A DNA stretch of 64,000 nt, from contig JAWBQR010000003.1 in the NCBI GenBank assembly GCA_038845265.1, positions 72,667 through 136,666 on the forward strand, given 5' to 3'. Below, one piece after another: positions 6,074 to 45,367 of the stretch (position 1 is the stretch's first letter; the number at the start of each line of letters is the position of its first letter). This DNA is from Nitrososphaerota archaeon (GTDB lineage: Archaea; Thermoproteota; Nitrososphaeria_A; Caldarchaeales; Calditenuaceae). The translations under genes were made by a program, and so were the position numbers. The notes beneath the pieces were generated by a model. The model saw only the letters and a program-made list of their open reading frames with translations, searched no databases and was not told the DNA's origin.

Positions 6074-6074
6074 G

Positions 6075-6665
6075 ATGAGCGAGGTCGCGACAGAGGCAAG
6101 TGTAAAGATGAGGCTCGCAGTCATCTCTGGACTATTCGGAGGTGTCTGCGCAACTGCCGCCCTATTCTCGATAATAATTATTCCGCTGCCGGGTATTCCT
6201 GGAGGATCTGGGTTCTGGATACCAGCCGCTCTGTACTTTGCCTTGACGCTGTGGTTCGGCGTGTATGGGGCATTAGCTGGGCATATAGGCACCTTCATTG
6301 GGATGGGACCATTCTTCGGCTGGACCTTCCAGGTCTGGGCAGACGGGGCTCTCGGAGACTTTATCGCTCCGCTTATCTGCAGGGCATTCTTCCTGGCGTT
6401 CAAGGCAGACCCAGAGCTAAAGACGAGGAAGGACTATGCCGTGTGGCTAATCTCAGTCCCAATAGCGACATGCCTGGCCGCTATGTGGATACACTTCGTT
6501 AACTACTCATTCGGCACTATTACCTTTGGGGCATGGGTCTGGGGAGTCATTGCATACACGATTGGTGATTCGCTCGCAGTATTTACGCTCGGCACCGTGC
6601 TGCTCAAAGTCGCCTCCAAATGGGTGAAGACAAGTCCATTCTACGTTAAGGGCCGCCTCCTATAG
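6075..6665 (+). CDS. ECF transporter substrate-specific (S) component
   Basis: 196-aa, ~6-TM small integral membrane protein immediately upstream of EcfT and EcfAA'. Substrate not assignable. Confidence 0.6.
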   Translation: MSEVATEASVKMRLAVISGLFGGVCATAALFSIIIIPLPGIPGGSGFWIPAALYFALTLWFGVYGALAGHIGTFIGMGPFFGWTFQVWADGALGDFIAPLICRAFFLAFKADPELKTRKDYAVWLISVPIATCLAAMWIHFVNYSFGTITFGAWVWGVIAYTIGDSLAVFTLGTVLLKVASKWVKTSPFYVKGRLL

Positions 6666-6674
6666 TGCTCAAAA

Positions 6675-7496: not shown

Positions 7497-7506
7497 GAGA
7501 TGAGAT

Positions 7507-9216
7507 TTGGTGGACGAGGTTATAAGAATTCAGGACCTATGGTGGAGGTACGAACTCGGAAAAGACTGGGCACTCAGAGGGATAAACCTCACAGTAAGAA
7601 GGGGAGAATTCCTCGTAATAGTTGGCCCAAGCGGAGCCGGAAAATCAACACTATGTCTCACGCTCTGCGGCATGATTCCACACTTCTCGCGGGGATACTA
7701 TAAGGGAGAAGTTCTGATAAATGGCCAGGAGACGAGAAAGATGAGGCTGAGCGAGATAACAAAGAAGGTCGGGATAGTCTTCCAAGACCCCGACACACAG
7801 TTCGTCACGATGTCTGTAGAGGATGAGATAGCCTTCCCACTCGAGAATCATGGAGTCCCTAGAGAAGAGATGATTAAGAGGGTTAGAAGGACGATGGAGA
7901 TGACGAGGATACTTGAGTTAAAGGATAAGTATCCACATGAGCTCTCCGGAGGCCAGAAGCAGAGAGTCGCGATAGCCTCAATACTCGCCCTGGAGCCTGA
8001 GATACTCGTCCTAGATGAGCCGACCTCTGACCTCGATCCAGTTGGAAAGACAGAAGTATTCTCAATGCTGGCAGACCTAAAGAAAGCGGGGAGAACAATT
8101 ATCCTAGTCGAGCATAATACTGAGGAAGCCGCGAAGTATGCGGATAGAATTGTCCTCCTTAAGGATGGACAAATAATCAGCGAGGGCTCACCGAGAGAGG
8201 TATTCAGAGACGTAGAACACATAAAGTCTACAGGCGTATACCCGCCACAAGTGACTGAGCTAGCTTATCTCCTTTCGTTAAGACATGGCTTGAACGGCAA
8301 GTTACCAATAACCCTAGAAGAATGCATCGAGTGGCTCCGGGAGATGAACGCGAAGATCATCAAATCTCTCCAGTCCAAGCCATCACCACAGAAGACGGAG
8401 GGAGAACCAATTATATCGTTCAGGAGAGTCTCATACAGGTACCCAGACGGCACGCTTGCCTTGAGTAATGTAGAAATAGGCTTCTCTAGGGGCGAGTTCA
8501 TCGCTATAATCGGTCAGAATGGCTCAGGAAAGACTACGCTGGTAAAACACATAGTCGGATTGCTGAAACCAAGTACTGGAGAAGTGAGGATATTCGGTAA
8601 GAGGACCTCTGAGACAAGCATTAGGGAGCTTGCAACAAAGGTTGGATACGTCTATCAGAACCCTGATCATCAGCTCTTCTGTCAGACAGTATATGAAGAG
8701 TGCGCATATGGTCTCCGTAACCTCGGAGTCAGGGAGGATGAGATTAAGTCCCGTGTGAGGGAAATCCTCAGAATGGTCGGCCTCGAGGGAATGGAAGATG
8801 TCGATACATTTCTACTGGGAAAGGGACAGCGCCAGAGATTGGCGATTGCATCTACACTCGTAATGAATCCAGAGGTAATAATCGTTGATGAACCGACCAC
8901 AGGCCAGGATATGGCCCAGTCATCAAGCATAATGAAGCTCCTCCAAGCCCTGAACAGGGAGGGAAGAACAATAATAATCGTCACACATAATATGCGCCTC
9001 GTTGCTGAATATGCCGAGAGGGTTGTGGTGATGCATGCAGGTAGAATAATTCTTGACGAAGACGTCAGGACAGTCTTCTCGCAGCCCGAGAAGCTGAAGG
9101 AAGCATTGATCACTCCTCCCCAGATAACGCAGCTTGGACACATCCTGGCAGGAGAGCAGTTCAGCCCACTCACAGTCGAGGAGGCAGCAGAATCGATTAG
9201 GATCGGTGATGCGTAG
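7507..9216 (+). CDS. ecfA: ECF transporter ATPase, fused tandem ABC domains (EcfA-EcfA')
   Basis: Two Walker A sites (GPSGAGKST, GQNGSGKTT), two LSGGQ-type signatures (LSGGQKQR, LGKGQRQR) and two Walker B sites (ILVLDEP, IIVDEP). Confidence 0.85.
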   Translation: MVDEVIRIQDLWWRYELGKDWALRGINLTVRRGEFLVIVGPSGAGKSTLCLTLCGMIPHFSRGYYKGEVLINGQETRKMRLSEITKKVGIVFQDPDTQFVTMSVEDEIAFPLENHGVPREEMIKRVRRTMEMTRILELKDKYPHELSGGQKQRVAIASILALEPEILVLDEPTSDLDPVGKTEVFSMLADLKKAGRTIILVEHNTEEAAKYADRIVLLKDGQIISEGSPREVFRDVEHIKSTGVYPPQVTELAYLLSLRHGLNGKLPITLEECIEWLREMNAKIIKSLQSKPSPQKTEGEPIISFRRVSYRYPDGTLALSNVEIGFSRGEFIAIIGQNGSGKTTLVKHIVGLLKPSTGEVRIFGKRTSETSIRELATKVGYVYQNPDHQLFCQTVYEECAYGLRNLGVREDEIKSRVREILRMVGLEGMEDVDTFLLGKGQRQRLAIASTLVMNPEVIIVDEPTTGQDMAQSSSIMKLLQALNREGRTIIIVTHNMRLVAEYAERVVVMHAGRIILDEDVRTVFSQPEKLKEALITPPQITQLGHILAGEQFSPLTVEEAAESIRIGDA

Positions 9217-9986
9217 TGTCGAGAGAGGAGAAGGCTGGCTACAGGCTGAATGTCTGGGAGACACTCAGAAAGTACGCACGACCAGACTCGAGGTTCCACT
9301 GGGACTTCTCCAAATTCATCCCAGACTTCAGGGGAAGCACGAGGTGCGCTGAGAGGATCAGACGCCTACCAGCATATAGGAGGGCAAAACTACTGTTCAT
9401 AACTCCTGACAACTGTCTCGAGTACTTCAGGGAGCTCTGCATAAGGGATGGGAAGCGATTCCTCATGACGCCCTACGCTATTCGGAGAGACTTCTTCTAC
9501 CTCGACCCGAGGAGGGTGCCGCGCGGAATGGAGGCCCTCGCATCGACGCTAGACGGAATCGAGCGATACGCTAGGCCAGTCAGTCTTAGAAAGATGATGA
9601 GGCTTGGACGCGTCGATATGTTGGTGACGGGCGTCTCGATCGTGAATACTAAGGGCGTAAGGTACGGCAAGGGTACTGGCTTCTTCGACATAGAGTGGGC
9701 AATCTTCAGAGAGCTCGGAATGGTTGATGACGAGACTCCGATAGTTGCGGTTGCCCACGATTGTCAGGTCGTCGAAGTGGATTTTCCCTATGCCTCGCAC
9801 GACACTATTGTTGACTACATTGTGACGCCGAGGAGGACAATCAGGGTCGAGAGGACTGAGAAGAAGCCACTGGGCATCGACTGGAGAATACTTCCACGAG
9901 AGCTGTTTGAGACTATTCCTCCACTCCAAGAGCTGGCGGAGCTCAAGGGTGTCAGGTACCCAGCCTCCAGTCCTGGAGATACTTGA
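9216..9986 (+). CDS. 5-formyltetrahydrofolate cyclo-ligase-family protein (MTHFS-like)
   Basis: …VNTKGVRYGKGTGFFDIEW… resembles the G-x-G-x-G-YYD motif of 5-FTHF cyclo-ligases. Confidence 0.45.
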   Translation: MSREEKAGYRLNVWETLRKYARPDSRFHWDFSKFIPDFRGSTRCAERIRRLPAYRRAKLLFITPDNCLEYFRELCIRDGKRFLMTPYAIRRDFFYLDPRRVPRGMEALASTLDGIERYARPVSLRKMMRLGRVDMLVTGVSIVNTKGVRYGKGTGFFDIEWAIFRELGMVDDETPIVAVAHDCQVVEVDFPYASHDTIVDYIVTPRRTIRVERTEKKPLGIDWRILPRELFETIPPLQELAELKGVRYPASSPGDT

Positions 9987-11265
9987 CCTGTCTCTCTGTC
10001 AGCTCCTCGATCTCTATCCCCATGCTCCTGAGCTTCGCCTTTGCTACTGCCTTGTCTATCTCTTCTGGGACGTCGTAGACCTTCTTCTCCAGTCTATCGG
10101 CGTTTCTTGAGATGTATTCGATTGAGAGCGCCTGGAGTGAGAAGCTTAGGTCCATTACTTCTGACGGATGTCCCTCGGCCGCTACGAGGTTCACCAGTCG
10201 GCCCTGACCGATCAGCAAGAGCTCCTTTCCGTCCCTCAGTATGTATTTCGTGACCAGGGGGGTTAATTCCTCGACCCTGACCGCCATCGATGCGAGGTCC
10301 TTGACAGATATCTCGACGTCGTAGTGCCCCGCGTTTGCGAGTATTGCTCCGCTCTTCATCTCTTTGAAGTGCTCCGCCCTTATGACGTCTATGTCTCCTG
10401 TCGCCGTTATGAATATGTCTCCGATCCTCGCGGCCTCCGTCATTTTTGTTACTCTGTAGCCATTCATCACGGCCATCAGTGCCCTCACTGGGTCCGCCTC
10501 GACCACTATTACCTCTGCTCCCATTCCCCTGGCCCTCATGGCTATTCCCGAGCCGACCCGCCCATATCCGGCGACGACGACTCTCTTTCCGGCGAGGAGT
10601 ATTCCAGTGGCCCTGATTATTCCGTCGAGGGCTGACTGTCCCGTGCCTATTGGGTTGTCGAAGAGAGACTTTGTCGGCGATTCATTGACGGCGAAGACTG
10701 GGTAGAGCAGCAGTCCCTGCCTCATCAGTGACTTTATTCTTACGACGCCCGTGGTGGTCTCCTCTGTCCCGCCCTTTATCGATGAGTATATCTCGAGGTC
10801 TCCGCCGATGGCCGCGGAGGCGTTCTCGACGTCAGGCCCATCCATCTTCCTCGCAATCTTGTGGACGATGACTGTTAGGTCTGCCCCGTCGTCGACCGTG
10901 ATTGTCGGCTTAATCCTGAGGGCTCTCCCGATGCATTCGTAGTACTCTCTCTGGTTCATGCCCCTGGCCGCGTATACTTTTATTCCGCTCCTTGCGAGTG
11001 CCGCCGCTACGTCGTCCTGGGTGCTGAGCGGGTTGGATGCGCATAGGGCGACTTCTGCTCCTCCCGCCCTGAGGGTCTCGACGAGGACTGCGGTCTCCTT
11101 CGTGACGTGTAGGCACGCGGCTATCCGCTCATCTCTGAGCGGCTTCTCCTCCATGAATCTCTTCCTGACCATTAGGCAGACAGGCATGAATCTCTCGGCC
11201 CACTCAATTTTTCTTCTACCCTGTCCTGCCAGGCCGATGTCTCTTACCCAGTAATCCATGCTCAT
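9952..11265 (-). CDS. ahcY: S-adenosyl-L-homocysteine hydrolase
   Basis: 437 aa. NAD-binding …VVVAGYGRVGSGIA… and catalytic-domain conservation throughout. Confidence 0.9.
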   Translation of the reverse strand: MSMDYWVRDIGLAGQGRRKIEWAERFMPVCLMVRKRFMEEKPLRDERIAACLHVTKETAVLVETLRAGGAEVALCASNPLSTQDDVAAALARSGIKVYAARGMNQREYYECIGRALRIKPTITVDDGADLTVIVHKIARKMDGPDVENASAAIGGDLEIYSSIKGGTEETTTGVVRIKSLMRQGLLLYPVFAVNESPTKSLFDNPIGTGQSALDGIIRATGILLAGKRVVVAGYGRVGSGIAMRARGMGAEVIVVEADPVRALMAVMNGYRVTKMTEAARIGDIFITATGDIDVIRAEHFKEMKSGAILANAGHYDVEISVKDLASMAVRVEELTPLVTKYILRDGKELLLIGQGRLVNLVAAEGHPSEVMDLSFSLQALSIEYISRNADRLEKKVYDVPEEIDKAVAKAKLRSMGIEIEELTERQVKYLQDWRLGT

Positions 11266-11378
11266 CGATGACTCTCTCTATCGGCGGCTTAATAAAGAAG
11301 CTCTGGGGCAGTGTAGGGATTAATAGGAGGCATGGAGACCTATTTCTCGTGGATATTAGGTCGAAGGAAAGCTACCTG

Positions 11379-11774
11379 ATGATGCTTGACTATGTCTACT
11401 CGAGGCTGGGGAGCAGGGCTGGGAAGGGTGGAGACAGGATGATAGAGCTGGTCCCGACAGTCCTCCACGAGCAGAAACAGACAATCATTACTAATTTTAG
11501 ACAACTCGCCGAGTCCATGAATAGGGAGCCTGAGCATCTCGCAAGGTTCATCTTCAAGGAGACAGGAAGACCTGGAACAGTAGAGAAGGACAGGCTGATA
11601 ATCAGCGGAAAGATGACAGACGCTGAGATCGTGAGGCTACTACAGCTCTACTTCAGAGAGTTCGTCAGATGCCCAGTCTGTGGAGGAGTAGACACAGAGA
11701 TAACGAGCGAGAAGAGGTTCAGATTCCTAGTATGCGAGGTATGCGGGGCCAAAAGCTCAATAAGAAAAATCTAA
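11379..11774 (+). CDS. eif2b: Translation initiation factor 2 beta subunit (aIF2-beta)
   Basis: C-terminal zinc ribbon …VRCPVCGGVDTEI…FLVCEVCGA… and an eIF2beta core. I chose the internal ATG at 11379, since the 11268 start would abut ahcY head-to-head. Confidence 0.75.
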   Translation: MMLDYVYSRLGSRAGKGGDRMIELVPTVLHEQKQTIITNFRQLAESMNREPEHLARFIFKETGRPGTVEKDRLIISGKMTDAEIVRLLQLYFREFVRCPVCGGVDTEITSEKRFRFLVCEVCGAKSSIRKI

Positions 11775-12685
11775 ACCAAAAACACATCACTGGTACTAAC
11801 ACCGAACTGCAGTAACAATCGTTTACTATATCTAAAAATGTCCGGAATGCCATAATTACATTCAACATAAAACCCAGAAACTTCTTTCGGGTCTTTAAAC
11901 CTCTCCCCCGTTGAGTGTGTAGGCTTATCATTTACAAGATATCTTTTACTTCTTTGTCCTGCTCTTATGGGAATATTGCTGCTCGTTATTCTTTTAGTCT
12001 CGACCAGCCATTCAACAGTCCTTAATAATATGTCTCGCCATCGCTTAAGCATGTATCTTCTCCCATCGGGAAATACTATCTCGCTAAACTTCATCGGAGA
12101 GCCTTGCTTAGGCTTAATGCTACTTAGCGATACACCTCTTTTTTCAGGTGGTTTTGGAATTACTTTTGTCTCCTGAATCGTTAGTGGTTTAGATGCCTCA
12201 CTGACGAGGGGCGAGTACCTAAAGAGTATGAAGGCCTTTCTAAGGACTTCTCCCGGCTCGTCCTTAGTTATGTCCCATTCAGCAATCTTCTTCTCTGGTA
12301 GCGGCTTGAGCGCATAAGTATCATAGACCTCCCACTTGGCGCCATCAGTCGCGATAAAGTATTTCACACCCTCAGCGACGCAGTAGGAGATGTATTGCTG
12401 AAGGTCTTCCTGTTTTCCGAGACTCTTCGCCCCTATGAAAACGAGCGGCCTCTCACCGCCATGCAACAGTGCGTAATCCGGGCGTCCAGCCTGAGTAGAG
12501 AACTCAGGCCTCACCTGCTCTGGGTCTTCTAAGTCCCAGCCCAATAGCCTAAGGAAAGGGTCAATAAGGACATAACGAGTCAATAACTCATTTTTCGCCA
12601 ACTGATCCCTATATCTATCCACTCGCCTCTGCAACTCGGCAATTTTATCAATTAATGTCTGAAACAACTCAAAGATAATAGCCAT
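11771..12685 (-). CDS. HsdR-N/Mrr-like PD-(D/E)xK nuclease-domain protein with an uncharacterised C-terminal domain
   Basis: N-terminus …TRYVLIDPFLRLLGWDLEDPEQVRPEF…GRPDYALL…IGAKSLGK…ATDGAKWEVYD matches the type I restriction-enzyme R-subunit N-terminal domain. Lies in an AT-rich stretch. Confidence 0.5.
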   Translation of the reverse strand: MAIIFELFQTLIDKIAELQRRVDRYRDQLAKNELLTRYVLIDPFLRLLGWDLEDPEQVRPEFSTQAGRPDYALLHGGERPLVFIGAKSLGKQEDLQQYISYCVAEGVKYFIATDGAKWEVYDTYALKPLPEKKIAEWDITKDEPGEVLRKAFILFRYSPLVSEASKPLTIQETKVIPKPPEKRGVSLSSIKPKQGSPMKFSEIVFPDGRRYMLKRWRDILLRTVEWLVETKRITSSNIPIRAGQRSKRYLVNDKPTHSTGERFKDPKEVSGFYVECNYGIPDIFRYSKRLLLQFGVSTSDVFLV

Positions 12686-15495: not shown

Positions 15496-16215
15496 TCAGC
15501 GCTTCCTACGACCAGTCCGACGAGCAGCAATAAGCCCAACCTTCTGACCAGGCGGAGCCGTACGCTTCACCGGCTCAGGACGACCAATCCTCTTATGACT
15601 ACCCCCACCAAACGGATGCCTCGCAGGAACCATCGCAACACCCCTAACACGCGGATAAGGACGATGACGAGCCCTCATCAAATGATACCTCTTACCAGCC
15701 TTCAACATCGGCTTATCAGTACGACCACCACCAGCCACAATACCCACGACAGCCAACGCCTTACTACTAACCTCGGCAAGCTTCTTCGACGGAAGCTCAA
15801 TAATCGTCCTATCACCAAGCTGAGAGACAACAGAGGCATAAGCACCCGAAGACCTCACAAGCTTACCACCATCACCAGGAGAATGCTCAATACAAGAGAC
15901 AAGACCACCCTCAGGAACCTTACCAATCGGCACAATGTTCCCAGTAGCAACGCTAGCATCAGCACCAGCCTCAATCACCTGACCAACATACAGCCCCTGA
16001 ACAGCCGGAAGATAAAACACATGACCATCCATCTCCACCTCAGCCACAGGAACACCACGACCAGCATCATGAACAATGTCCCTCACAACCCCCCTCAACA
16101 AACCAGCAGAACCAATAACACTCGAAGGATAACCAACCGCATACCTCCTCTGAATACTACCGACATAAGTCGGCGAACCCCTACCAATCCTCTGAGCCCT
16201 AATCCTACGCGGCAA
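15496..16215 (-). CDS. rpl2: 50S ribosomal protein L2 (uL2), TTG start
   Basis: …GRGSPTYVGS…, …HPFGGGSHK… L2 signatures. Third codon positions are almost exclusively G/T. Confidence 0.9.
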   Translation of the reverse strand: MPRRIRAQRIGRGSPTYVGSIQRRYAVGYPSSVIGSAGLLRGVVRDIVHDAGRGVPVAEVEMDGHVFYLPAVQGLYVGQVIEAGADASVATGNIVPIGKVPEGGLVSCIEHSPGDGGKLVRSSGAYASVVSQLGDRTIIELPSKKLAEVSSKALAVVGIVAGGGRTDKPMLKAGKRYHLMRARHRPYPRVRGVAMVPARHPFGGGSHKRIGRPEPVKRTAPPGQKVGLIAARRTGRRKR

Positions 16216-16227
16216 ACACCACCACCC

Positions 16228-16500
16228 CTAAAACACACCAAGCCTCACAGCAAGATCCGAAGCCCTATACTCAGGCCTAAGCTTCACATACGCCTTCTTC
16301 ACACCCCTCGGCGTAATCAACGTATTAACCTTCTCAACCCTAACACCATAAAGACTCTCAACCGCACGCTTCACATCACTCTTCGAAGCCCCCAAAGAAA
16401 CAATAAAAGTCAACTTATTCTCCCGCTCAATCAACGAAACCGCATCCTGCGTAATCACAACACCCAAAATAACCTCCTCAGGCCTCAACGCCAAAGACAC
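16228..16500 (-). CDS. rpl23: 50S ribosomal protein L23 (uL23). Start re-assigned to GTG/TTG overlapping the L4 stop
   Basis: …[46 protein letters not shown]…. The track's 116-aa version extends into the L4 gene in another frame. Confidence 0.8.
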
Positions 16501-17299
16501 CCCCAAGAACACCAAGAGCAGAAGAAGAAAAAACCACAAGCCTACCAGGATGACCTCCAGGCGCCAAATGAAGAACACTCAAATCCCTCACATCAACAAC
16601 CTCAACGCCGGGAACACTCCCAGCAGCCCTAGATATGCCCTCATCACGAGAAACAACAATTAGAGGACCAACACGACGCTTATACCTCCTTCCCCTCCGC
16701 TTGCCCTTACCAGACCTCACCTTCCTCTCCCTGCACCTCTCCAACTCTTCTCCAAGCCCAAGACGCACCAAGAAGTCGACCAAGTCCTTCGCCCTCGAGA
16801 CACGCTCAATCTCATCCACAACAACGATCGGAACATCCAGGCCATCCGGGACTCGATGCCCCCTCTTCCTAACCCATTCAAGATTAGCAGTAAATGCAAG
16901 CGCAGAAAAAAGCGCCGACCTCCTCTCCTTATCATTCACATCCTTATGAATCCGCTTCTCAGGAACAGGAGGATGCGTCGGCCTCCCACCGACCGCAGTA
17001 GGGACAAACCCACCCGCATTACTCTTACCCGTACCAGTCACCCTCAGCCTAGAAATCCTCGCCAAGCCATAACCAGCACCAAGAGACTCAACAGAATACT
17101 TATGCCCAGAACCCCTCCACGCACCTTTAGGCTGAACCCGATGAGAAAAGAGAGCATTAAAGACCCTCTGCACAAGCAATGGCCTAAGAGGAGCATTAAA
17201 GACCCGGGGAAGAATCGTCCTGCCCTTCTCCACCCCATCTAAGCCGTAGACCCTGACCTCTCTCGGCTCAGAGACGCTGATACGCGTTAAGATACTCAT
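16478..17299 (-). CDS. rpl4: 50S ribosomal protein L4 (uL4)
   Basis: 273 aa, L4 family (…[17 protein letters not shown]…). Lies between L3 and L23. Confidence 0.85.
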
Positions 17300-18294
17300 G
17301 ATGCAAGCACCTCTCCTCCATAAATGTACGAGACGATCTTTGGCGGACTCACCGAATGGCTGGGTGGCTTCGCAGGCATCCTGAGCACAACCGGTCTCTT
17401 AGGAGTGCCGAAAACTGATCCAAGTACCACGATGCATGGGGACTTCAGAACTGTGAAGTGCTTGAACCCGCCGCTCGGAGTCAGCTTGGCGCCGTCGTCA
17501 ATCACGGCCATCACTCTTTTGTTGAACTCTGTTCTCCTATGATAACCCATCTGCCCAGCACGGGGGACAAATCTGGTGACATAAGTAGGTTTCCGCCCAC
17601 CGATTGCGCCGACCGCTCTACGAGTCTTTCTCTGCTTTCTTGGGAGAATCTTAACGCCAAATCTCTTTACAACGCCCTCGAATCCATGTCCCTTTGTGAC
17701 GCCTATGACGTCTACGTATAATCCAGGAGTAAACACTTCTGAGGCACTTATCTTACTCCCAAGCTTAGACATAACGTATTCAAGGGCTGAACGTACCTCT
17801 CCACCGACCTTGATTTCAAGGAGGAATGGGCGTTTCTGTGATAAGCCCGCCTCGCTTGGGAATGATGCGACAATTGCTCTTACCTCTACTGCCTTGTCAA
17901 GTAGGCTTTTAATCTCTTCTTTACCAGCGCCGGGAGATATGCCCCTGACTTTCTTGAGTAATGCTTCTGGCAGATTATCTGCATACATTCTTCCAAGCTC
18001 GATTAGATTGCCGTTTTCCTCGCCCATTAAGACCACGCCTATGATGTACATTGGTGGTGCAGCCAAGACAGTCGCAGCCGTCTGCACCTCAGTTCCGAAT
18101 GTAGGAGAGCCTGGCAGATCATCTACATAATGCAAAGTTAACGTACCTGCTTTATATGCAATGAATCCCATTAGCCCCTTTACACCATCTCTACTTGGCC
18201 AGTACCTTACGCTTGGAAGCAGTTCTTTAGCCCTCTTCCTCGGGCTATATGCTAATGACCCATGCCTCGGTGCCGAGTATTTCCTATGTCCCAT
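17296..18294 (-). CDS. rpl3: 50S ribosomal protein L3 (uL3)
   Basis: 332 aa, …GVTKGHGFEGVVKRFG… L3 signature. Codon usage is ordinary, unlike the three genes downstream. Confidence 0.9.
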   Translation of the reverse strand: MGHRKYSAPRHGSLAYSPRKRAKELLPSVRYWPSRDGVKGLMGFIAYKAGTLTLHYVDDLPGSPTFGTEVQTAATVLAAPPMYIIGVVLMGEENGNLIELGRMYADNLPEALLKKVRGISPGAGKEEIKSLLDKAVEVRAIVASFPSEAGLSQKRPFLLEIKVGGEVRSALEYVMSKLGSKISASEVFTPGLYVDVIGVTKGHGFEGVVKRFGVKILPRKQRKTRRAVGAIGGRKPTYVTRFVPRAGQMGYHRRTEFNKRVMAVIDDGAKLTPSGGFKHFTVLKSPCIVVLGSVFGTPKRPVVLRMPAKPPSHSVSPPKIVSYIYGGEVLAS

Positions 18295-22797: not shown

Positions 22798-23781
22798 TCA
22801 AACCACCTGGTCGATGAACTGAGTCAAGACGGCAAGTATCGAGGAGTATAAGCAGACTATTCCCATGTAGATGGCGATCTGAACCTCGCTTCTAGGCCTA
22901 TCAGCTGCAAGCATTCTGACTAATGTGAGAGGAGCGGCTGGGCTTAGATTTGACAATATTAAGTTGCCTGAGACCTTAATAGGTCTAGTAATGACTTGTT
23001 TACCTGATTTAAGGCCCCTCAATGAGACAAGGACATAAAACTCATTCATTATATGTGGAATTAAGGCAATGATTGCCACTACTTCAAGCCTAGAGGTGAT
23101 AGCGATTCCAGCAATAACCGCTCCTATCAAGTTGCTGCCAGCGTTTCCACTAAATGCCCTCGCAGGGCACCAGTTGTATTTCAGGAAACCCAGCATAGAG
23201 GCGACAAGAATCATTGCCATCAATGAGACATCTGTTTTATTATTCATTATTGATAGTCCTGCCAACGTTAATAGTGGTGGAAGACTTGTAAGGACAAGTG
23301 ATCCGTTGACGACGTCTAGACTATTAACAGCGTTCGTTACGATTGTATAGGCAACTAACACAAGTAATGGATAGAGTATCGTGATTCTGACCTGTCCTAT
23401 GAACGGAAGGATCGGCCTAGGTTCATAGAGCCCGAGAAACACTATGGGAAGACCCGGCAATATGAGCAATAATGGTTTTAGGATCGGGTTTAGTTCTCTA
23501 AAATCCTCAATTAATCCTATGATTGCAGCTATTGCAGGCGCTATTAAAAAAGGTACGATAAGGTCGTTTCTTGATAATATGAGGAATATTCCTGAAGCTG
23601 CTAGGTAAGTGATTACTATTGCGAGACCCCCTATGCGGGGAACTAAGGGGTGTCCGGGCTTATGCACATCTCTACCCAGTATTCCCCGTGAAAAAGAGAA
23701 CTTGATAATTAATTTAGTTAATAATAGAGATGAGATAAATGAGAGAAGGAATAAGCCCGCGAGTAGTATGATGTTCTCCAT
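22798..23781 (-). CDS. aglH: UDP-GlcNAc:dolichyl-phosphate GlcNAc-1-phosphate transferase (GT4, MraY/WecA/AglH family)
   Basis: …GLIEDF…, …VNSLDVVNG…, …PARAFSGNAGSNLIG… motifs in a 10-TM protein. Confidence 0.8.
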   Translation of the reverse strand: MENIILLAGLFLLSFISSLLLTKLIIKFSFSRGILGRDVHKPGHPLVPRIGGLAIVITYLAASGIFLILSRNDLIVPFLIAPAIAAIIGLIEDFRELNPILKPLLLILPGLPIVFLGLYEPRPILPFIGQVRITILYPLLVLVAYTIVTNAVNSLDVVNGSLVLTSLPPLLTLAGLSIMNNKTDVSLMAMILVASMLGFLKYNWCPARAFSGNAGSNLIGAVIAGIAITSRLEVVAIIALIPHIMNEFYVLVSLRGLKSGKQVITRPIKVSGNLILSNLSPAAPLTLVRMLAADRPRSEVQIAIYMGIVCLYSSILAVLTQFIDQVV

Positions 23782-23880: not shown

Positions 23881-24933
23881 ATGGACGTTTGGGTAGACAT
23901 CCTCACACCGAAACAAGTATTGTATTTCTGGCCAGTCGTAGAAAAACTTAGAGACAAGGGCCATGAAGTATTAGTTACCGCACGGAGGTATGAACAGCTT
24001 GACTGGCTGATCAGCAGAATTAATCTGGATATAAAGGTAATAGGCGAGTTTGGAGGAGAGACACTATACGGCAAGCTCCTATCAAGTACTAGGAGACAAC
24101 TCGAACTACTAGAATTATTCAGAGAAGATAAGCCTAGAATTGTATTATCGAGCGGCTCAATAGAAGCCTCCAGGATTTCATATGGATTGGGAGCGCGGCA
24201 TATATTGGCTTCAGACACTGTTCACTCACCAGTGAATAGAATATGTGTTCCACTATCTGAATTAATCCTGACTCCACGCTTTATTCCAATAAAGGAGTGG
24301 CTGAGATATGGTGCAAAAAAAGGAATGATTAAGAGATATAGATCTCTCGATCCAGTCGCATGGATGAAGAGAATAAGTACTTTTCAGGAATCTTATATGG
24401 AAATTGACTTGCCGGAAAATTATATATTGGTAAGGACGCCGGAGAGTAAGGCATCATACATTCTTGGTAAAGGACTAGAGGAGGTAATTAAACTAATTAA
24501 CATTATTACAAAACTTGAAGAATACAGCATAGTAGTGTTGACAAGATACAGAGAAGAAGCTAACCTTATTAGAGAAAAATTGCCCAAAGGCATAATTATA
24601 ATTGAGAAGCCTATATTAGCTATTCCATTAATTAAAAAAGCGAGCCTTGTTTTATCAGGAGGCGGAACAATGACTCAAGAAGCAGCGCTCCTAGGTAAAC
24701 CTACAATAATGTTTTATCCTGGAAAACTTCCAGCCGTGCATAGATTCCTAGCTAGGTTAGGACTAATAAAGAGGATTCCACCAAGCATGCTTCATAGGGT
24801 TCCCTATATTGCTGCTCAACTATTATCCGAAAAATCGAAAAGTAAACTCGCCGCAAAAGCTGAAAAATTAATGAGGACACTCGAAGACCCAGCTGAGTTT
24901 ATTTATCGATATGTTAATTCACTTCTGACATAA
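23881..24933 (+). CDS. DUF354-family protein (predicted glycosyltransferase-like, archaeal)
   Basis: N-terminus MDVWVDILTPKQVLYFWPVVEKLRDKGHEVLVTARRYEQL… matches the DUF354 consensus (MKIWIDI..P.H..FF…GHEV.ITAR). Confidence 0.55.
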   Translation: MDVWVDILTPKQVLYFWPVVEKLRDKGHEVLVTARRYEQLDWLISRINLDIKVIGEFGGETLYGKLLSSTRRQLELLELFREDKPRIVLSSGSIEASRISYGLGARHILASDTVHSPVNRICVPLSELILTPRFIPIKEWLRYGAKKGMIKRYRSLDPVAWMKRISTFQESYMEIDLPENYILVRTPESKASYILGKGLEEVIKLINIITKLEEYSIVVLTRYREEANLIREKLPKGIIIIEKPILAIPLIKKASLVLSGGGTMTQEAALLGKPTIMFYPGKLPAVHRFLARLGLIKRIPPSMLHRVPYIAAQLLSEKSKSKLAAKAEKLMRTLEDPAEFIYRYVNSLLT

Positions 24934-26547
24934 TTCTCTGAGAGTATCCTCTATGCTTAATAACTTGTCATAAGCGTATCTCAAGTCTTTTCTGAATGAA
25001 TCATATATCTTCTTGTAGCTTTGCTGGCTTAATTCACCTTTCTGAAAATCTGTATAATTCCTCAGAATTACTCTCAATGCCTCACTAAGCACACCTAACG
25101 ATGAGTTTATCTCCTTTGTTGTTTCCTGTATCTCGATTGTTTTTTCCTCTAGTTTTTCAATCGAGTTTATAACTTCATCAGCAATTCTGCGCACAACGTG
25201 TACCTTATCAGTCATAACTTGCGGTCTCGTCTTTACAGCCGTGGGGGATAACCCATTCTCGATCTCCAGTAATATTGATCTCAACTTTTGTAATTCTTGT
25301 ATAGCTTTTGAAATTGTCTGTAAATCCTTTTGACTTATTATCTTAGTCCGCGGAAACTTACCGCGGATTACCTGCAATACGATGGCACTTAATATTATGA
25401 CTACAAAGCCTCCGCCTATGATCCAAGAGGCAAGAGAAGCTGAGCTAGACGACTTGACCAATGGAAGAGTGATGTAATTGTTTTGATAGATATTTAGTTC
25501 TCTGCTCTCGATTCTTGCGATAGCTGCTCCAGCCTCGTCGTGATGATATTCAGCAACATTTGCATTTGTCATATCAACTTCGTATCCGGCTGGAAGAATT
25601 ACAGAAATACTCAATGAACCGACTGTTGCATTTATTGGTGTGAAGAGTAATATCTTCACTTCATCGTCATTTATGTACATTGTTTCTGGTGTCTGGCATT
25701 TTGCCAAAATTGTGAATGTGTATCTCCACGAGTTTTGGAGGGCATATCGTGACTGTTCAAGATTGACAGTGAGTATATTTTTTTCTTTGCTCCATGAGTA
25801 GGACAGCTTACCTAGAGTGTCTCTTACTTCCTTTACTTCAATTCCATTGGGAAAATTTAGGTCCAACTGTCTCAGCAAGCTATTAGCTTGGTTCTTTATC
25901 CTCATCGTTATGACTATAATTGATTCTGAAGGCTCATAAGTCATGTCAAGACTTTCAACATGAATTAGAGATATTCCACTCGAGATTAGCCTAATTCTTA
26001 TCGGATCTGGAATCGTATCACCAGAAATCGTGATGTTGTTTTTCTCTAATCCACGATTAGTTAGTGTCCAGTCTGAGGGGGCACCCGGATATCTAACGTA
26101 ACTCGTTGATGAGAAGAGTATATTTGCATGGACAGTCTGTCCCTGAATTAAGGGCTCAGCATTTATGACTAACTCGTAGTTATTTCCTCCCGCATCATAT
26201 ATTAATTCTCTATAAATTGCTGTAATTATCAAATCCGTCGACTTGGGGTTTATCTCATAAATGTATAGTCCCGACGGTGACTTTTCTATGAATTTGCTTT
26301 CCCCGCCATTAACTACGAGTTGAACAAGTCGGTTATGCATCTCTTCAACTATTCCAAACCTAAAGCTATCATCCGCTCCGTGAATCTTATCTACCACATA
26401 TACCAGGCCACCGTTCTCCGGAATGATAGTCCTATCAACCATAAGAACATTTTCCGGCCTAGCAGAGATAGGCATCAAGAAGATTAGCAATACCGCCAAG
26501 ACCACGATGATCGGAATCCTCAATTTCTTATCCAAAGCTATAATCAT
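24919..26547 (-). CDS. Type-I membrane surface protein: signal peptide, ~340-aa ectodomain with many N-x-S/T sequons, one TM, ~150-aa cytoplasmic coiled-coil tail
   Basis: Signal/TM MIIALDKKLRIPIIVVLAVLLIFLMPISA, TM …WIIGGGFVVIILSAIVLQVI…, helical K/E/L-rich C-terminus. Confidence 0.5.
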   Translation of the reverse strand: MIIALDKKLRIPIIVVLAVLLIFLMPISARPENVLMVDRTIIPENGGLVYVVDKIHGADDSFRFGIVEEMHNRLVQLVVNGGESKFIEKSPSGLYIYEINPKSTDLIITAIYRELIYDAGGNNYELVINAEPLIQGQTVHANILFSSTSYVRYPGAPSDWTLTNRGLEKNNITISGDTIPDPIRIRLISSGISLIHVESLDMTYEPSESIIVITMRIKNQANSLLRQLDLNFPNGIEVKEVRDTLGKLSYSWSKEKNILTVNLEQSRYALQNSWRYTFTILAKCQTPETMYINDDEVKILLFTPINATVGSLSISVILPAGYEVDMTNANVAEYHHDEAGAAIARIESRELNIYQNNYITLPLVKSSSSASLASWIIGGGFVVIILSAIVLQVIRGKFPRTKIISQKDLQTISKAIQELQKLRSILLEIENGLSPTAVKTRPQVMTDKVHVVRRIADEVINSIEKLEEKTIEIQETTKEINSSLGVLSEALRVILRNYTDFQKGELSQQSYKKIYDSFRKDLRYAYDKLLSIEDTLRELCQK

Positions 26548-41170: not shown

Positions 41171-42733
41171 CTACTCCGGTGGAAGTTCCTTGAACGATAG
41201 TTCGAGAGGTATTCCTGTCTTGCGGTGGTATAGCGAGGATATGAGGTAGATCACGATGCCTATTATGAAAAGCCCGATAGTGAATGCCATTATTGATGGG
41301 TCGAGTTCTCCGACAAATGCTGGCGATATACTTGCGTAGCCTAGGTATATTGATAGTATTATCGCTATGATTGACAATATATGTAAAACATATATCGGTC
41401 CGATTCTTGTCTTGACAATTGATGGAGACCTTTCCCAAATGTCTTTTCTCCTGGAAGGGAACAATAAAGCAGCGATAGAGGTTATTATCTGCATTATCAT
41501 CCATCCGAAGACAATATATGCGAAATATTGTAAAAGCGGAGTCCAGAGCCATAGTGCTTGGAATATTATGGCCACTATTGTTACAAAGATTAAAGCTGCG
41601 TATGGTGTGTGATATCGTACATCGACATTCGACAAAAAAGTCGGTACTACTCTGTCGAAAGCCCATGCAAATACAAATCTTACACCAGAGGCGACGTAAG
41701 TCAATATCGCGGCTAAGACCATCGCTCCCCATCCAATCATCATTATTGTAAAGACTCTGGGATCGACAGAGTACTGGAATAACCACATAAAGAAGGGTTC
41801 CCTCGCTAGTGGATAGTTGCTGCTTCCAATTGCATAGAGGTAGGACAATGCGCCAAGAAACTCTCCACCCATTCCAACGTATGAAACTTCGTATGCTAAC
41901 CAGTCAATAAATCCGAAGAGCAATACCGCTCCGACTATGGCAATTATCTGAGACTTCTGAACCTCTTTAATCTCTCCAGCGAGATATATTGAAAAATTGA
42001 ATCCAAGGAAGTTGATGTATGTAAATGTTAACCCAAGTAGAGTTGCTGATAACAAGAATGTGCCTGGATAACCCTCTTTTACGGCTTCACTGATTATAGA
42101 TTCATAAGAAACACCGGTGGCCTTGGTGAAATTTTCTGCAAAGCCTGCTTTACCAATCATGAGTAGCCCTGCTACATAGACGACTAAGCCTATCAAGACC
42201 AGTATGAAGAACGCCCATAAAACTTTAGTTGTAGCTTTCGCCCCTCTAGAAATTATCAATGCACATATCAAATAGTAGATGACCGCAAAGATGAATGTAA
42301 ATTCGTTTGATGAAACGAGAGCCGCTAAGTCTGTCATGCCGTTGACCTCAAAAATCGGTGCCAATGTATATTGAGTAAACCAAGGAATGTATGCGCCAGC
42401 AACACTCAATACCGTCATGAATAGAAAGAAGTTAATGGCGTAGCCCAATGAGGGATGAAGTATCCTGCTGACCCATATGTAGTCTCCTCCTGCTCTAGGC
42501 ATAGCTATCGAGAATAATGCGTAGAATAATCCAATGACCAAGCTTATGGGTATAGCTAGTAGTGCGGTGGCGGGGAGATGTGCGCCTGGATATATTACAG
42601 AGGCCCATACGCCGTATACCAAGATTGCCATAGGCGCCATGACCATAATGTTAAAAATCATGGCATCGAATGCAGAGATGTTTCGTATAAGCCCTGACGC
42701 CCTCCTTACGTAAACATCCCTACTCATTCCCAA
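41171..42733 (-). CDS. APC-superfamily amino acid/polyamine permease
   Basis: 520 aa, 12-13 TM, APC-type N-terminal region. Confidence 0.7.
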   Translation of the reverse strand: MGMSRDVYVRRASGLIRNISAFDAMIFNIMVMAPMAILVYGVWASVIYPGAHLPATALLAIPISLVIGLFYALFSIAMPRAGGDYIWVSRILHPSLGYAINFFLFMTVLSVAGAYIPWFTQYTLAPIFEVNGMTDLAALVSSNEFTFIFAVIYYLICALIISRGAKATTKVLWAFFILVLIGLVVYVAGLLMIGKAGFAENFTKATGVSYESIISEAVKEGYPGTFLLSATLLGLTFTYINFLGFNFSIYLAGEIKEVQKSQIIAIVGAVLLFGFIDWLAYEVSYVGMGGEFLGALSYLYAIGSSNYPLAREPFFMWLFQYSVDPRVFTIMMIGWGAMVLAAILTYVASGVRFVFAWAFDRVVPTFLSNVDVRYHTPYAALIFVTIVAIIFQALWLWTPLLQYFAYIVFGWMIMQIITSIAALLFPSRRKDIWERSPSIVKTRIGPIYVLHILSIIAIILSIYLGYASISPAFVGELDPSIMAFTIGLFIIGIVIYLISSLYHRKTGIPLELSFKELPPE

Positions 42734-42812
42734 TTACATCTCCTTTTGGATATTTTTCAATCTTTTGCAATTTTTAAAATAAATTTATTGTATAAAAACT
42801 TTACTATTGATT

Positions 42813-44084
42813 CTATTTCTCATGATAAATCCAGCCTTCCATCTTTTCCCATTCCCAATGATAACTGGTCGGAACAGCATAGCCATAGACTATGCATCCC
42901 CGCCATACGGCATACTGTGGTTCTGCTGATAACTTTACGTTGACGTTCTCTAATCCTTTATTTCTCAACATGTATTGAAGTTTTGTTTGTGAATCTACTG
43001 TAATTCCTTTGAGTAAGGATAAAGGTTTCCACATAAAGTTACCGCCCGACAAAATTATATGTGCATATAAGTGGGGCTGTAACTCCACTGGGCACCTCTC
43101 TACAGCCCTTATTATTGTCTCAGCCATGTCTAAGGTTCCATAGAAAGTAATATCTCCTATCCTAGTGTCAGATGGTCTCGGCATGCCCCTCTTAAAGTAG
43201 CTCTGAAAGACCTCATGGTTGGGATTGAAAACATACTCTCCTATCAAGAAACGAGTCCATGAATACTCAGCCAAGTCAATCTTAATTCTCGTTCCCGGCA
43301 CTTGGTAGACCGCTCGGACCTGTTCAGGGTTACGCTTGGCGTAATTGATAGCCTCGTCAAGCTCGAGGGGGAGTAGCCCGATGTTTTCCTTAACTTTTCT
43401 GACTAGATTCTCTTCTCTTGCGAGGTCACCATACCCTGCATCTTTTAGTATCTCTGCAGTAATTGCATTTGCCTCACTTCCACCTCTATTCAAGGCAACT
43501 ATGGCGTCTCTAATAGGCGCCCTAGATATTGGTGCGACCTGCGTATTCCCATGGCCGCTTTCGACGACGACACAAGATAGCTCTTTATGAGCTATCGCAA
43601 CAGCTAATGGCTGAGGTATAATTGTTGATGCATAGACCAGTTTACTTTCCTTAGCTATGCTATCGTATATGTTTATTAAATTTTCATACATATATCGAGG
43701 AGCTACGGCAGATAATGATGCAACAAGATAAAATCCTTTAAAGCCAAAACCACTAGGTTTAAACTCCTCAAGTGCAAACATGGTTAATTCCTTAATAATT
43801 CTCCATGCGTTCTGATCGCCTTTTGGTATTACTCCATCCCTCATTGGATATATTAATCTCGATGAAAGATCAGCCCCACTTTCAAGAAAATACGATACTT
43901 CTTTTCCTACTACTATGTCTTTTTCGACACCCAAAATCTTAGATACCATTGACTTCTCTGGGAGATATCCACGATTCTCAATAATTGCGGGCCTCTCACC
44001 TAAAGTAATCGGTCCATATTTATAATCACTAGTTCCATAATCACTACCAAATACGAACCTGCGCTTGTAATCCTCCTCAAACAA
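42813..44084 (-). CDS. cren-1: Crenactin (archaeal actin homologue)
   Basis: Actin-fold motifs: phosphate-1 …FVFGSDYGTSDYKYG…, phosphate-2 …VVVESGHGNTQVAPI…, adenosine …ILSGGNFMWKPL…. 423 aa, as in Pyrobaculum/Thermofilum crenactins. Confidence 0.8.
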   Translation of the reverse strand: MFEEDYKRRFVFGSDYGTSDYKYGPITLGERPAIIENRGYLPEKSMVSKILGVEKDIVVGKEVSYFLESGADLSSRLIYPMRDGVIPKGDQNAWRIIKELTMFALEEFKPSGFGFKGFYLVASLSAVAPRYMYENLINIYDSIAKESKLVYASTIIPQPLAVAIAHKELSCVVVESGHGNTQVAPISRAPIRDAIVALNRGGSEANAITAEILKDAGYGDLAREENLVRKVKENIGLLPLELDEAINYAKRNPEQVRAVYQVPGTRIKIDLAEYSWTRFLIGEYVFNPNHEVFQSYFKRGMPRPSDTRIGDITFYGTLDMAETIIRAVERCPVELQPHLYAHIILSGGNFMWKPLSLLKGITVDSQTKLQYMLRNKGLENVNVKLSAEPQYAVWRGCIVYGYAVPTSYHWEWEKMEGWIYHEK

Positions 44085-44119
44085 TCCTACTAGAGAGTCG
44101 AGAACACGTAATTATTAAG

Positions 44120-44797
44120 TTAAGTCTTCTCGGAGAGTAAGTCAACCCATGGATTTTCTGCAATAAAGGACGGCAGATTATCAGTCTTGCTCTTCTTAAC
44201 TTTCTGTTCACTTCTTTTTTGATATATTTCTATTTTCGGCTTCTCTGAATTACTTGTCTCAACTGTTTTAATGTCGATGTGATTCATCTTTTCATAAACG
44301 ACCTGCTCTAAGAATTCTAATCTCCTATTTAATTCATCAATCATGCTTAGACTACTAATTAATTCTTCAACTCTTTCCAATCTTGAGGATAAAGAATCGA
44401 TCAATGTCTCTATTTTTTCGAGTTCATTTATATTACCCTGAGTTTCGCCGAATGAAACTATACTGCCGCCCACAAGCTCAGTTATCTTTTGATCGCTATA
44501 AACAATGAGCCCTATTTTATGAAGTCTAAAAGCATGGTCTCCAATTCTCGATAGTAGTTGCATCGGTAATGCGACATATGCGATCTTTCCCGAAGCGGCA
44601 TCAAATGCCGATTGAATTACTGCGGAGAGTAAATCTCCTCCATTGGCTTCTTCATCAACAATACGGATGATTGCCTCTATACCACCATTACTAAACCTAA
44701 TAATATTTTCAGAGAAATCTTTTTCTAAAATTCTGTATCCTTGTTTAGATATGTAACTAGCAATTTTGTCTAACGTATCCTTTCTCGTTACGTGCAA
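44120..44797 (-). CDS. Hypothetical protein with coiled-coil C-terminus immediately upstream of crenactin (possible arcadin-like partner)
   Basis: 225 aa. Globular N-terminal domain plus heptad-rich C-terminal half (…LEKIETLIDSLSSRLERVEELISSLSMIDELNRRLEFLEQ…). Probably co-transcribed with crenactin. Confidence 0.35.
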   Translation of the reverse strand: MHVTRKDTLDKIASYISKQGYRILEKDFSENIIRFSNGGIEAIIRIVDEEANGGDLLSAVIQSAFDAASGKIAYVALPMQLLSRIGDHAFRLHKIGLIVYSDQKITELVGGSIVSFGETQGNINELEKIETLIDSLSSRLERVEELISSLSMIDELNRRLEFLEQVVYEKMNHIDIKTVETSNSEKPKIEIYQKRSEQKVKKSKTDNLPSFIAENPWVDLLSEKT

Positions 44798-44878
44798 TTG
44801 CCACTGATAATAATTCTTGGTCTCGGATATAAATAATCTCTGCCTTTTATAGCTGCTAATTTATTAGACAATCCATGA

Positions 44879-45367
44879 ATGGATTTATCCATGATATCCC
44901 TCGATGTTGTAGGATATGTAAGAGTAAATTACACCGATGAATATGTAAAAGAACATTCAGGTGAAGTTGAAGGAATCGTCGAAGTATTGCCTAAATTTAC
45001 TGATGCACTTGAAGGAATCGAAGAATATTCACATATTTTTCTAATATCTTATCTACATAAACAAGCAGATGCTTCTAGGAATGTTTTGAAGGTTAGACCT
45101 AGAAGGCTCCTGAGAATGGGGTTAGAATTTAAGGATCTACCGATTGTAGGAGTATTTGCAACGGATTCGCCCACCCGCCCTAACCCGGTAGGATTAACAT
45201 TAGTCAAACTGCTGGGTAGGAAAGAGAATTTACTTCATGTATGGGGATTAGATCTTTTTAATGAGACTCCCATCATAGATATTAAACCGTATTCGAGTAG
45301 TTACAGGGCAAGTGAATATAAAGTGCCACTCTGGGCCTCAAAGTTTGATGAGCGTAAACCGATTTAG
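44879..45367 (+). CDS. TsaA/TrmO-like (YaeB family) tRNA methyltransferase
   Basis: …RPNPVGLTLVKLL… signature, 162 aa. Confidence 0.75.
   Translation: MDLSMISLDVVGYVRVNYTDEYVKEHSGEVEGIVEVLPKFTDALEGIEEYSHIFLISYLHKQADASRNVLKVRPRRLLRMGLEFKDLPIVGVFATDSPTRPNPVGLTLVKLLGRKENLLHVWGLDLFNETPIIDIKPYSSSYRASEYKVPLWASKFDERKPI

Follow-up and report, generated by a model that had tools for sequence, protein, structure and literature searches.

The window analysed here is a 64-kb stretch (64,000 nt) of contig JAWBQR010000003.1 from a Nitrososphaerota archaeon of the Caldarchaeales. It carries a gene for the archaeal actin crenactin and, upstream of it on the same strand and separated by 35 bp, an unannotated gene for a protein of 225 amino acids (aa). 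We conclude, with a probability of about 0.8, that the 225-aa protein is a divergent orthologue of arcadin-2 (Rkd2), that it belongs to a minimal two-gene crenactin module, and that it acts through its C-terminal motif. An earlier reading of the DNA letters (hereafter the sequence-only reading) had suggested that this neighbour might be arcadin-like, and the comparisons below by hhalign, BLASTP and a family profile all bear out that identity.

True arcadin-2 sequences were obtained by locating the crenactins of Thermoproteales and then reading their contigs. The arcade reference loci were L060 (with a crenactin identical to that of Pyrobaculum calidifontis), L061 (Thermoproteus tenax), L062 (Thermofilum pendens), L063 (Vulcanisaeta moutnovskia) and L065 (a Pyrobaculum metagenome-assembled genome, MAG). 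When the subfamily of the window protein was compared with the five Thermoproteales arcadin-2 sequences in hhalign, the match reached 96.7% (E=4.4e-10) over 210 columns, including the N-terminal domain. BLASTP aligned residues 68-224 of the window protein with residues 63-202 of P. calidifontis arcadin-2 (E=2e-5, 161 columns, identity ~24%). In this alignment the tail IAENPWVDLLSEK pairs with IGENEWVKILRSK, which falls within the 17-residue crenactin-binding peptide of P. calidifontis. The 203-aa P. calidifontis protein terminates in RGGIGENEWVKILRSKR, and its residues R187-R203 are the synthetic peptide that was tested experimentally. A hidden Markov model (HMM) built from 86 family sequences matched the arcadin-2 proteins of P. 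calidifontis, T. tenax, and T. pendens over nearly their full length, with 43.5, 54.4, and 79.2 bits, respectively. Moreover, 53 of the 86 family members matched the NCBIfam model Rkd2 at E<0.01, the best at 3.2e-11. Searches with phmmer that started from the same three arcadin-2 proteins found the crenactin-adjacent open reading frames (ORFs) of many loci, among them L001, L002, and L008, the loci most closely related to the window. Intermediate forms of the tail were also present, namely ILDNEWVKIL in T. tenax, LPDFLSNNPWVDVL in Vulcanisaeta, and LPSFARDNPWL, which occurs twice, in T. pendens. Querying a word-indexed protein collection with the 86-sequence profile gave just 14 proteins, all already known, and no named arcadin-2.

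The 225-aa protein has 12 close relatives, and a profile search of 1.84 billion representatives extended the family to 102 proteins, mostly of 200-250 aa. About 100 representative clusters of this family lack a Pfam domain as well as an informative name; the label of one of them is just "hypothetical protein". Nearly all members end in LPSF-x-x-(D/E/N)-N-P-W-(V/L/I)-x-(I/V/L)-L-S-x-(R/K), a motif that was present in ~90 family representatives, and L208, P209, F211, N215, P216, W217, and L221 of the tail are invariant or nearly so. Among the 12 sequences, all of the last 18 positions were conserved or conservatively substituted (18/18), down to an overall identity of 37%. The alignment thus points to strong purifying selection on the tail motif in the clade of the window. 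Within the window the motif was found once. Two tandem LPSF..DNPW copies, ~25-30 residues apart, were seen in T. pendens arcadin-2 (L062:9333-10082) and in the family members P0067, P0083, and P0109. Such tandem tails recall the WH2 repeats of eukaryotic actin nucleators and could bind two crenactin subunits.

The gene neighbourhood was compared across 59 crenactin loci from other genomes in a species-dereplicated collection. A homologue of the 225-aa gene lies directly beside crenactin, in the same orientation, in 55 of these 59 loci, which span several archaeal classes; the adjacency of the two genes is not a matter of chance. Three of the four exceptions stop at a contig edge, and only L010 truly has a different upstream neighbour. 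The sequence-only reading had asked whether this neighbour is kept beside crenactin in related genomes, and it is; Thermofilum and Caldivirga, proposed there as the comparison set, were the wrong choice, since the genome is Caldarchaeales/Aigarchaeota-like. In the window and in L001-L009 the homologue is located upstream of crenactin, and the gap is 8-35 bp in 8 of the 9 related loci and 307 bp in L005. In the other lineages (Bathyarchaeia, Brockarchaeota, Culexmicrobium, other Thermoproteota, Ca. Geocrenenecus, and Thermoproteales) it is located immediately downstream and often overlaps the crenactin stop codon. Ca. Geocrenenecus, which has the downstream order, belongs to the same family as Terraquivivens. 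The pairs of Bathyarchaeia, Brockarchaeota, Culexarchaeia and other Thermoproteota (L011-L059) likewise form a two-gene module with no arcadin-1 within 10 kb, and they share the LPSF..DNPW..ILS tail and the domain order of the window protein, while their arcadin-2-like gene is downstream, often overlapping (gap -4 to -91), instead of upstream at 8-35 bp. Within the clade of the window, conservation is confined to the crenactin/arcadin-2 pair; the window shares TrmO, EamA, the permease, and its other flanking genes only with its two closest relatives.

The remaining arcadins were then mapped. In L060-L063 and L065, the genes that come after crenactin are one of ~200-250 aa, a small one, and one that is SMC-like. 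L060, L061, and L065 have arcadin-1 (PF18653) directly upstream of crenactin, V. moutnovskia (L063) has it detached, on the opposite strand, and none was found in the T. pendens locus (L062). Searches by phmmer and jackhmmer with the P. calidifontis and T. tenax queries detected no arcadin-1 among the window ORFs of at least 40 aa or in any non-Thermoproteales locus, and arcadin-3 had no match in the window. For arcadin-4 (SMC/Rad50-like, ~790 aa) jackhmmer strayed into generic ABC/SMC ATPases, and its sole window match, 7507-9216, was rejected as a tandem ABC_tran ECF-type ATPase adjoining CbiQ. Arcadin-1, -3, and -4 were likewise absent within 10 kb of crenactin in the non-Thermoproteales loci except L027, a Thermoprotei MAG with arcadin-3- and arcadin-4-like genes near crenactin. 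The suggestion that the arcade cluster is minimal or divergent and has a single arcadin neighbour therefore holds, as a divergent arcadin-2 is present and arcadin-1, -3, and -4 are not found in the window.

A few loci deviated from these patterns. In L010 (Ca. Caldarchaeales archaeon PSS.bin.6, crenactin 67% identical), the upstream gene (L010:2204-3055) encodes a 283-aa protein with a zinc-ribbon N-terminus (CPHC...CINC) and a coiled-coil C-terminus, and the NPW motif occurs nowhere in the 14-kb locus. Thermocladium modestius (L064:6001-7308) has a crenactin without adjacent arcadin-2, -3, or -4. A small GTPase of the Arf/Ras/Roc type is encoded near crenactin in L064 and in Vulcanisaeta moutnovskia (L063:3295-5589), and L064 also has a Roadblock/LC7 gene, which together resemble an MglA/MglB-like pair. 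In the Bathyarchaeota "MFD" MAGs L052, L055, L056, L058, and L059, crenactin is broken up into 2-3 ORF fragments, as is the arcadin-2-like gene of L059, reflecting either long-read frameshift errors or pseudogenes.

The identity of the crenactin was clear. In a phmmer search against the PDB, residues 4-420 of the window crenactin matched residues 6-429 of P. calidifontis crenactin (4cj7/5ly3) with E=1.7e-116; 5mw1 was also matched, and eukaryotic actins reached ~1e-9 only. The NCBIfam crenactin model (NF053560) was covered over its full length (1-422/422) with 571.9 bits (E=7.6e-172), and the Pfam Actin match had E=1.1e-15. The score is below the equivalog cutoff of NF053560 (630 bits), which appears to be tuned to Thermoproteales, with the window protein in the Caldarchaeales branch of the family. 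Among 13 crenactins, the segments FGSDYGTS (D15, G17, T18), IIPQPLAVAIA (Q158), ESGHGNTQ (E175, G177-N180, Q182), ILSGGNF (S346-G348), and AVWRGCIVYG (W394, G396) carry invariant residues, and the phosphate-1, phosphate-2, adenosine, and connect motifs are all conserved together with the catalytic Gln (Q158 in the window, Q164 in P. calidifontis). The actin-fold phosphate and adenosine motifs recognised in the sequence-only reading were thus recovered both in the PDB alignment and among the 13 crenactins. Furthermore, the "hydrophobic plug" loop (P. calidifontis 292-326) aligned without gaps, and the polymerisation residues V339/E340 of P. calidifontis were kept (SVEIQ there, PVELQ in the window), with E334 and Q336 invariant among the 13 crenactins. 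The segments PQPLAVAIA and (A/S)VWRG..(V/I)YGYA, which by homology would line the actin cleft as reported by Dominguez 2004, are nearly identical between the window and P. calidifontis. Mutation of the V/E pair stops the polymerisation of P. calidifontis crenactin (PMC5173319). From an identity of ~47% and the conserved nucleotide-binding and polymerisation residues, we infer that the window crenactin forms ATP-dependent F-actin-like filaments.

The crenactin comparison also placed the host. The closest crenactins, 67-91% identical, come from Nitrososphaeria/Caldarchaeales MAGs (Ca. Terraquivivens, Ca. Caldarchaeum, and unnamed bins), and the host is therefore of the Caldarchaeales/Aigarchaeota type. 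A Thermoproteales affiliation of the locus was dismissed, since its crenactin is only ~47% identical to that of Pyrobaculum.

No domain was found in the 225-aa protein by Pfam, and a PDB sequence search with it gave nothing meaningful. Its AlphaFold2 model, calculated from the 86-sequence alignment, had a mean predicted local distance difference test (pLDDT) score of 85.6. As listed in Table 1, the model consists of a folded alpha/beta domain, a single long helix, a Lys-rich linker without conservation even in close relatives, and the tail, for which two short helices (210-213 and 217-223) were predicted. The globular N-terminal domain described in the sequence-only reading is thus reproduced, with pLDDT >90. 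The C-terminal half had been called heptad-rich; the long helix is there, while its heptad character is modest, as 67% of the a/d positions are L/I/V/M and 163 of 5000 shuffles equalled this value. Rad50/SMC coiled coils gave weak NCBIfam matches only, and the helix is a possible coiled-coil or dimerisation element.

A Foldseek search with the N-domain model returned XisH (2inb, E=2.5e-5) as well as AF2093, splicing endonuclease, Hjc, SfsA, and BamHI, with E=2.5e-5 to 1e-2, probabilities of 0.93-1.0, a target-normalised template modelling (TM) score of 0.56, and 10-15% identity. The predicted domain thus resembles a restriction-endonuclease-like (PD-(D/E)xK-like) fold. Its predicted topology (helix, three strands, helix, strand, and so on) recalls that of the PD-(D/E)xK proteins XisH (2inb/2okf), AF2093 (2ph7), Hjc (1hh1), and splicing endonuclease (3ajv), but at 10-15% identity, without a conserved acidic/lysine catalytic motif, and by a match that concerns the predicted model only. 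Across the 86 family members no acidic or Lys position of a catalytic D...(D/E)xK was conserved in strands 2-3 (residues 32-46). The conserved N-domain positions in the family alignment are G20, Y74, A76, P78, G96, L97, and E107.

What the module may do can be read from the P. calidifontis proteins. With ATP, the crenactin of P. calidifontis assembles into double filaments that are F-actin-like (PMC5173319). Full-length arcadin-2 of this species binds crenactin with a dissociation constant (Kd) of 31 nM, solely via its C-terminal residues, and in vitro it depolymerises the filaments and binds monomers in a 1:1 complex, while the construct 1-167, which is without the tail, is inactive (PMC5173319). 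The C-terminal peptide also depolymerises filaments, and a 1.6 A co-crystal structure places it in the hydrophobic groove of crenactin (PMC5173319). The C-terminal residues take the groove that is used by the D-loop of the neighbouring subunit in the filament, with the Trp and hydrophobic residues as key contacts (PMC5173319). Because of this occupancy, arcadin-2 sequesters monomers and dissolves filaments. In the protein, a linker that lacks conservation and presumably also structure precedes a C-terminal domain that is small and conserved, with the Trp and the hydrophobic residues (Izore 2016, PMC5173319).

Among known systems, this one comes closest to the window pair. In the P. calidifontis arcade (Ettema 2011; Izore 2016, PDB 5LY3), a protein of ~200-225 aa is likewise encoded beside crenactin on the same strand, and arcadin-2 has the matching architecture, in which a folded core and a long helix are followed by a linker without conservation and by a small motif, conserved, at the C-terminus. 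Homology extends along the whole length, and the tails have E-N-x-W-V-x-(I/L)-L in common, although P. calidifontis reads GGIGENEW where the window protein reads LPSF..(D/E)NPW. The partner is downstream of crenactin in P. calidifontis, whereas in the window it is upstream, without arcadin-1, -3, and -4 in the locus or in the 64 kb; the hosts differ as well, a Thermoproteale in one case and a Caldarchaeales-type Nitrososphaerota archaeon in the other. The window tail retains the Trp (W217) and the hydrophobic V218, L220, and L221 of the tested peptide. Since these positions are kept and the cleft segments of the two crenactins are nearly identical, the same tail-groove interaction is the most likely function of the window protein. 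In the proposed mechanism, the window crenactin would polymerise with ATP into double filaments like those of F-actin. The 18-residue tail LPSFIAENPWVDLLSEKT would fold into a short helix and insert into the hydrophobic groove that lies between subdomains IA and IIA, in competition there with the next subunit's D-loop, leading to monomer sequestration and filament depolymerisation. The N-domain and the long helix would presumably localise or oligomerise the regulator. A crenactin-binding element in the C-terminal helix had been proposed in the sequence-only reading; a C-terminal element homologous to the tested peptide does exist, and it is likely to be the last ~18 residues rather than the heptad helix.

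Short helices that bind actins in this manner are known from other systems. In ParR-ParM of plasmid R1 and in the complexes of WH2 and thymosin-beta4 with actin, a short amphipathic helix on a flexible region enters the IA/IIA groove and controls assembly (comparison of Izore 2016). None of these proteins has sequence similarity to the window protein; ParR differs in its ribbon-helix-helix (RHH) DNA-binding domain and in promoting filament-end attachment, and thymosin binds in the reverse orientation.

The coordinates of the locus are given in Table 1. The crenactin gene, its 225-aa neighbour, and the downstream APC permease were all confirmed by the ORF list and Pfam. The TTG start of the 225-aa gene is supported by the homologues P0005 and P0009, which have ATG at the identical position. 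A longer N-terminus, as in P0002, was considered and rejected, as the upstream frame has no start codon and most homologues begin at the annotated position. The frame upstream of the TTG (44798-44860) is open and resembles the 20-residue N-terminal extension of P0002 (SYKRQRLFISE.KNYYQWQ), with ATT at the would-be start; the more distant homologues begin where the annotated gene does.

Table 1. Features of the crenactin/arcadin-2-like locus and its surroundings (positions in the window).
Feature	Position	Strand	Description
Crenactin gene	42813..44084	-	ORF, 423 aa, TTG start
Arcadin-2-like gene	44120..44797	-	ORF, 225 aa, TTG start
Folded alpha/beta N-domain	codons 1-112, 44462..44797	-	AlphaFold2, pLDDT 90-98
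Single long helix	codons 125-182, 44252..44425	-	AlphaFold2, pLDDT up to 96
Lys-rich linker, predicted disordered	codons 183-207, 44177..44251	-	pLDDT 54-65, no secondary structure
Conserved C-terminal motif LPSFIAENPWVDLLSEKT	codons 208-225, 44123..44176	-	predicted helix binding the hydrophobic groove of crenactin
Spacer from 225-aa stop to crenactin start	44085..44119	-	35 bp, sequence read directly
Intergenic region shared with divergent TrmO	44798..44878	.	sequence read directly
Spacer after crenactin stop	42734..42812	-	sequence read directly
APC permease	41171-42733	-	downstream; 520 aa; Pfam AA_permease_2, E=1.6e-26
TrmO (tRNA methyltransferase) gene	44879-45367	+	divergent, upstream of the 225-aa gene

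The spacers were inspected for transcription signals. A TATA-like TTTATAT lies at about 44827-44833, ~30-36 nt ahead of the TTG of the 225-aa gene, and its distance, usual for an archaeal TATA element, suggests that it is the promoter of this gene; the same intergenic region also has CTATAAAAGG at about 44844-44853. The 35-bp spacer contains AGGA 4-5 nt before the TTG of crenactin and TTAATAA ~30 nt upstream of it, and no oligo-T run was found in it. After the crenactin stop there is an oligo-T tract, GTTTTTATA, followed by AT-rich TATA-like elements and by AAAGGAG (Shine-Dalgarno-like) before the permease start. The tract resembles an archaeal terminator, which suggests that the two-gene unit ends there and that a separate promoter serves the permease. 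In the simplest reading, arcadin-2 and crenactin probably form one bicistronic transcription unit.

Several points weigh against the assignment as an arcadin-2 that acts through its tail. The window protein alone scored just 14.1 bits against NCBIfam Rkd2 (NF053561; E=0.028, cutoff 290), in the tail region. Its tail has NPW where the tested peptide has NEW, D219 in place of K, and an extra LPSF, and because of these departures its affinity and effect could differ from those of the P. calidifontis peptide. Compared with all Thermoproteales loci, the two genes stand in the reverse order, and the TTAATAA of the 35-bp spacer could equally be an internal or separate promoter. In addition, the in-vivo role of arcadin-2 itself is unsettled in the literature (PMC10936438). 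As a control for the low score, the 290-bit cutoff was applied to true arcadin-2 proteins; only those of Pyrobaculum (300.3) and Thermoproteus (296.1) passed it, Vulcanisaeta reached 38.2, and T. pendens gave nothing. Because the cutoff covers a narrow Pyrobaculum/Thermoproteus subgroup only, missing it says little on membership of the wider family.

The same control bears on the idea that an unrelated coiled-coil protein stands beside crenactin by chance and that its arcadin-2 match is coiled-coil or low-complexity noise. The single-sequence match of E=0.028 did lie amid coiled-coil noise from Rad50, MreC, and MAT1, and the PDB sequence search was empty of meaningful matches, as this idea would have it. 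But the homology spans the N-domain and the tail and not the helix alone, the invariant N-P-W tail has the same Trp and hydrophobic residues as the peptide that was tested, the adjacency holds in 55 of 59 genomes of several archaeal classes, and the curated Rkd2 model is too narrow even for the arcadin-2 of Vulcanisaeta and Thermofilum; we regard a chance neighbour as hardly credible. It is also very improbable, in our judgement, that the two genes are transcribed independently and functionally uncoupled, with arcadin-2 kept for another role after a rearrangement had moved it upstream. The 8-35 bp gap is kept in 8 of the 9 related loci (307 bp in L005) while the flanking genes change, an oligo-T terminator is found after crenactin and not between the genes, and the tail with its 18 conserved final positions in 12 sequences is under strong purifying selection, as far as the alignment tells. 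The order inverted against most lineages, the TATA-like TTAATAA in the spacer, and the loss of the adjacent gene in L010 and in Thermocladium (L064) would fit such an uncoupling.

A different function for the same protein was also weighed, in which it would be a ParR-like adaptor. Its endonuclease-like N-domain, maybe dimeric via the long helix, would hold DNA or cargo, and the tail would tether that cargo to crenactin filament ends in a segregation or positioning machine. In its broadest form, arcadin-2 would be, rather than a depolymeriser restricted to Thermoproteales, a pan-Thermoproteota/Nitrososphaerota crenactin adaptor whose tail couples DNA or cargo to crenactin, or nucleates crenactin, in the manner of ParR or tandem WH2 repeats. 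The predicted fold like that of XisH, Hjc, splicing endonuclease, SfsA, and BamHI is compatible with this, as are a long helix that could mediate dimerisation and the double tail motifs in T. pendens, P0067, P0083, and P0109. Moreover, the orientation of the arcadin-2 peptide in the groove is that of ParR on ParM (PMC5173319), and P. calidifontis arcadin-2 was reported between segregated nucleoids (PMC5840170). But full-length P. calidifontis arcadin-2 depolymerises filaments and binds monomers 1:1 in vitro, the fold match is modest (TM 0.56, 10-12% identity), and the N-domain has neither a conserved catalytic signature nor another one for nucleic-acid binding. Beside the genes no DNA site or repeat was seen either, though no search was aimed at one. 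We therefore consider the adaptor function unlikely, both for the window protein and in its broadest form. If the latter were true, an archaeal segregation or positioning machine based on actin would have the crenactin/arcadin-2 pair as its ancestral core. The preferred assignment remains a divergent arcadin-2 that controls crenactin through its tail.

The literature (Culexarchaeia paper) had already recorded crenactin together with arcadin-1 and arcadin-2 in Caldarchaeales and, in marine Culexarchaeia, crenactin with arcadin-1, -2, and -4. That Caldarchaeales carry the pair is therefore known, and the pair's mechanism is taken from Pyrobaculum, so that the current picture is unchanged and this is not a new system. 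The additions are incremental. An unannotated gene and a family of "hypothetical proteins" are assigned to arcadin-2, the gene order is found to be flipped in one clade, and the predicted fold of the N-domain is nuclease-like. It is the crenactin/arcadin-2 pair, and not the five-gene arcade cluster, that appears to be stable in evolution, and this pair is spread over Caldarchaeales, Bathyarchaeia, Brockarchaeota, Culexarchaeia, and Thermoproteales. LPSF..(D/E)NPW..(I/L)LS is the widespread version of the binding motif and probably the ancestral version of the helix shown by experiment to bind crenactin. These assignments are useful for annotation and for picking tractable pairs for biochemistry.

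The rest of the 64-kb window is ordinary chromosomal DNA with genes for ribosomal proteins L2/L3/L4, two aminoacyl-tRNA synthetases, aconitase, an ECF transporter, and pantothenate genes. Rfam and tRNA scans of the window gave two tRNAs and nothing connected with the crenactin locus. A 542-aa ORF at 24919-26547 (-) had a marginal Pfam match to Ribophorin_I (E=6.7e-6, 25.9 bits, cutoff 25), and a glycosyltransferase family 4 gene is located nearby at 22798-23781. Ribophorin_I is an oligosaccharyltransferase subunit and is regarded as a eukaryotic signature protein. The G+C content was 0.46-0.52 at 1-12000 and 16001-18000, compared with ~0.37-0.44 elsewhere. The first 12 kb encode aconitase, the ECF transporter (CbiQ and the tandem ABC ATPase), and AdoHcy hydrolase, and the 16-18 kb block, with a GC skew of -0.32, has minus-strand genes for the ribosomal proteins L2, L4, and L3. 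The high G+C of these blocks probably reflects the composition of genes that are highly expressed or conserved, and not foreign DNA.

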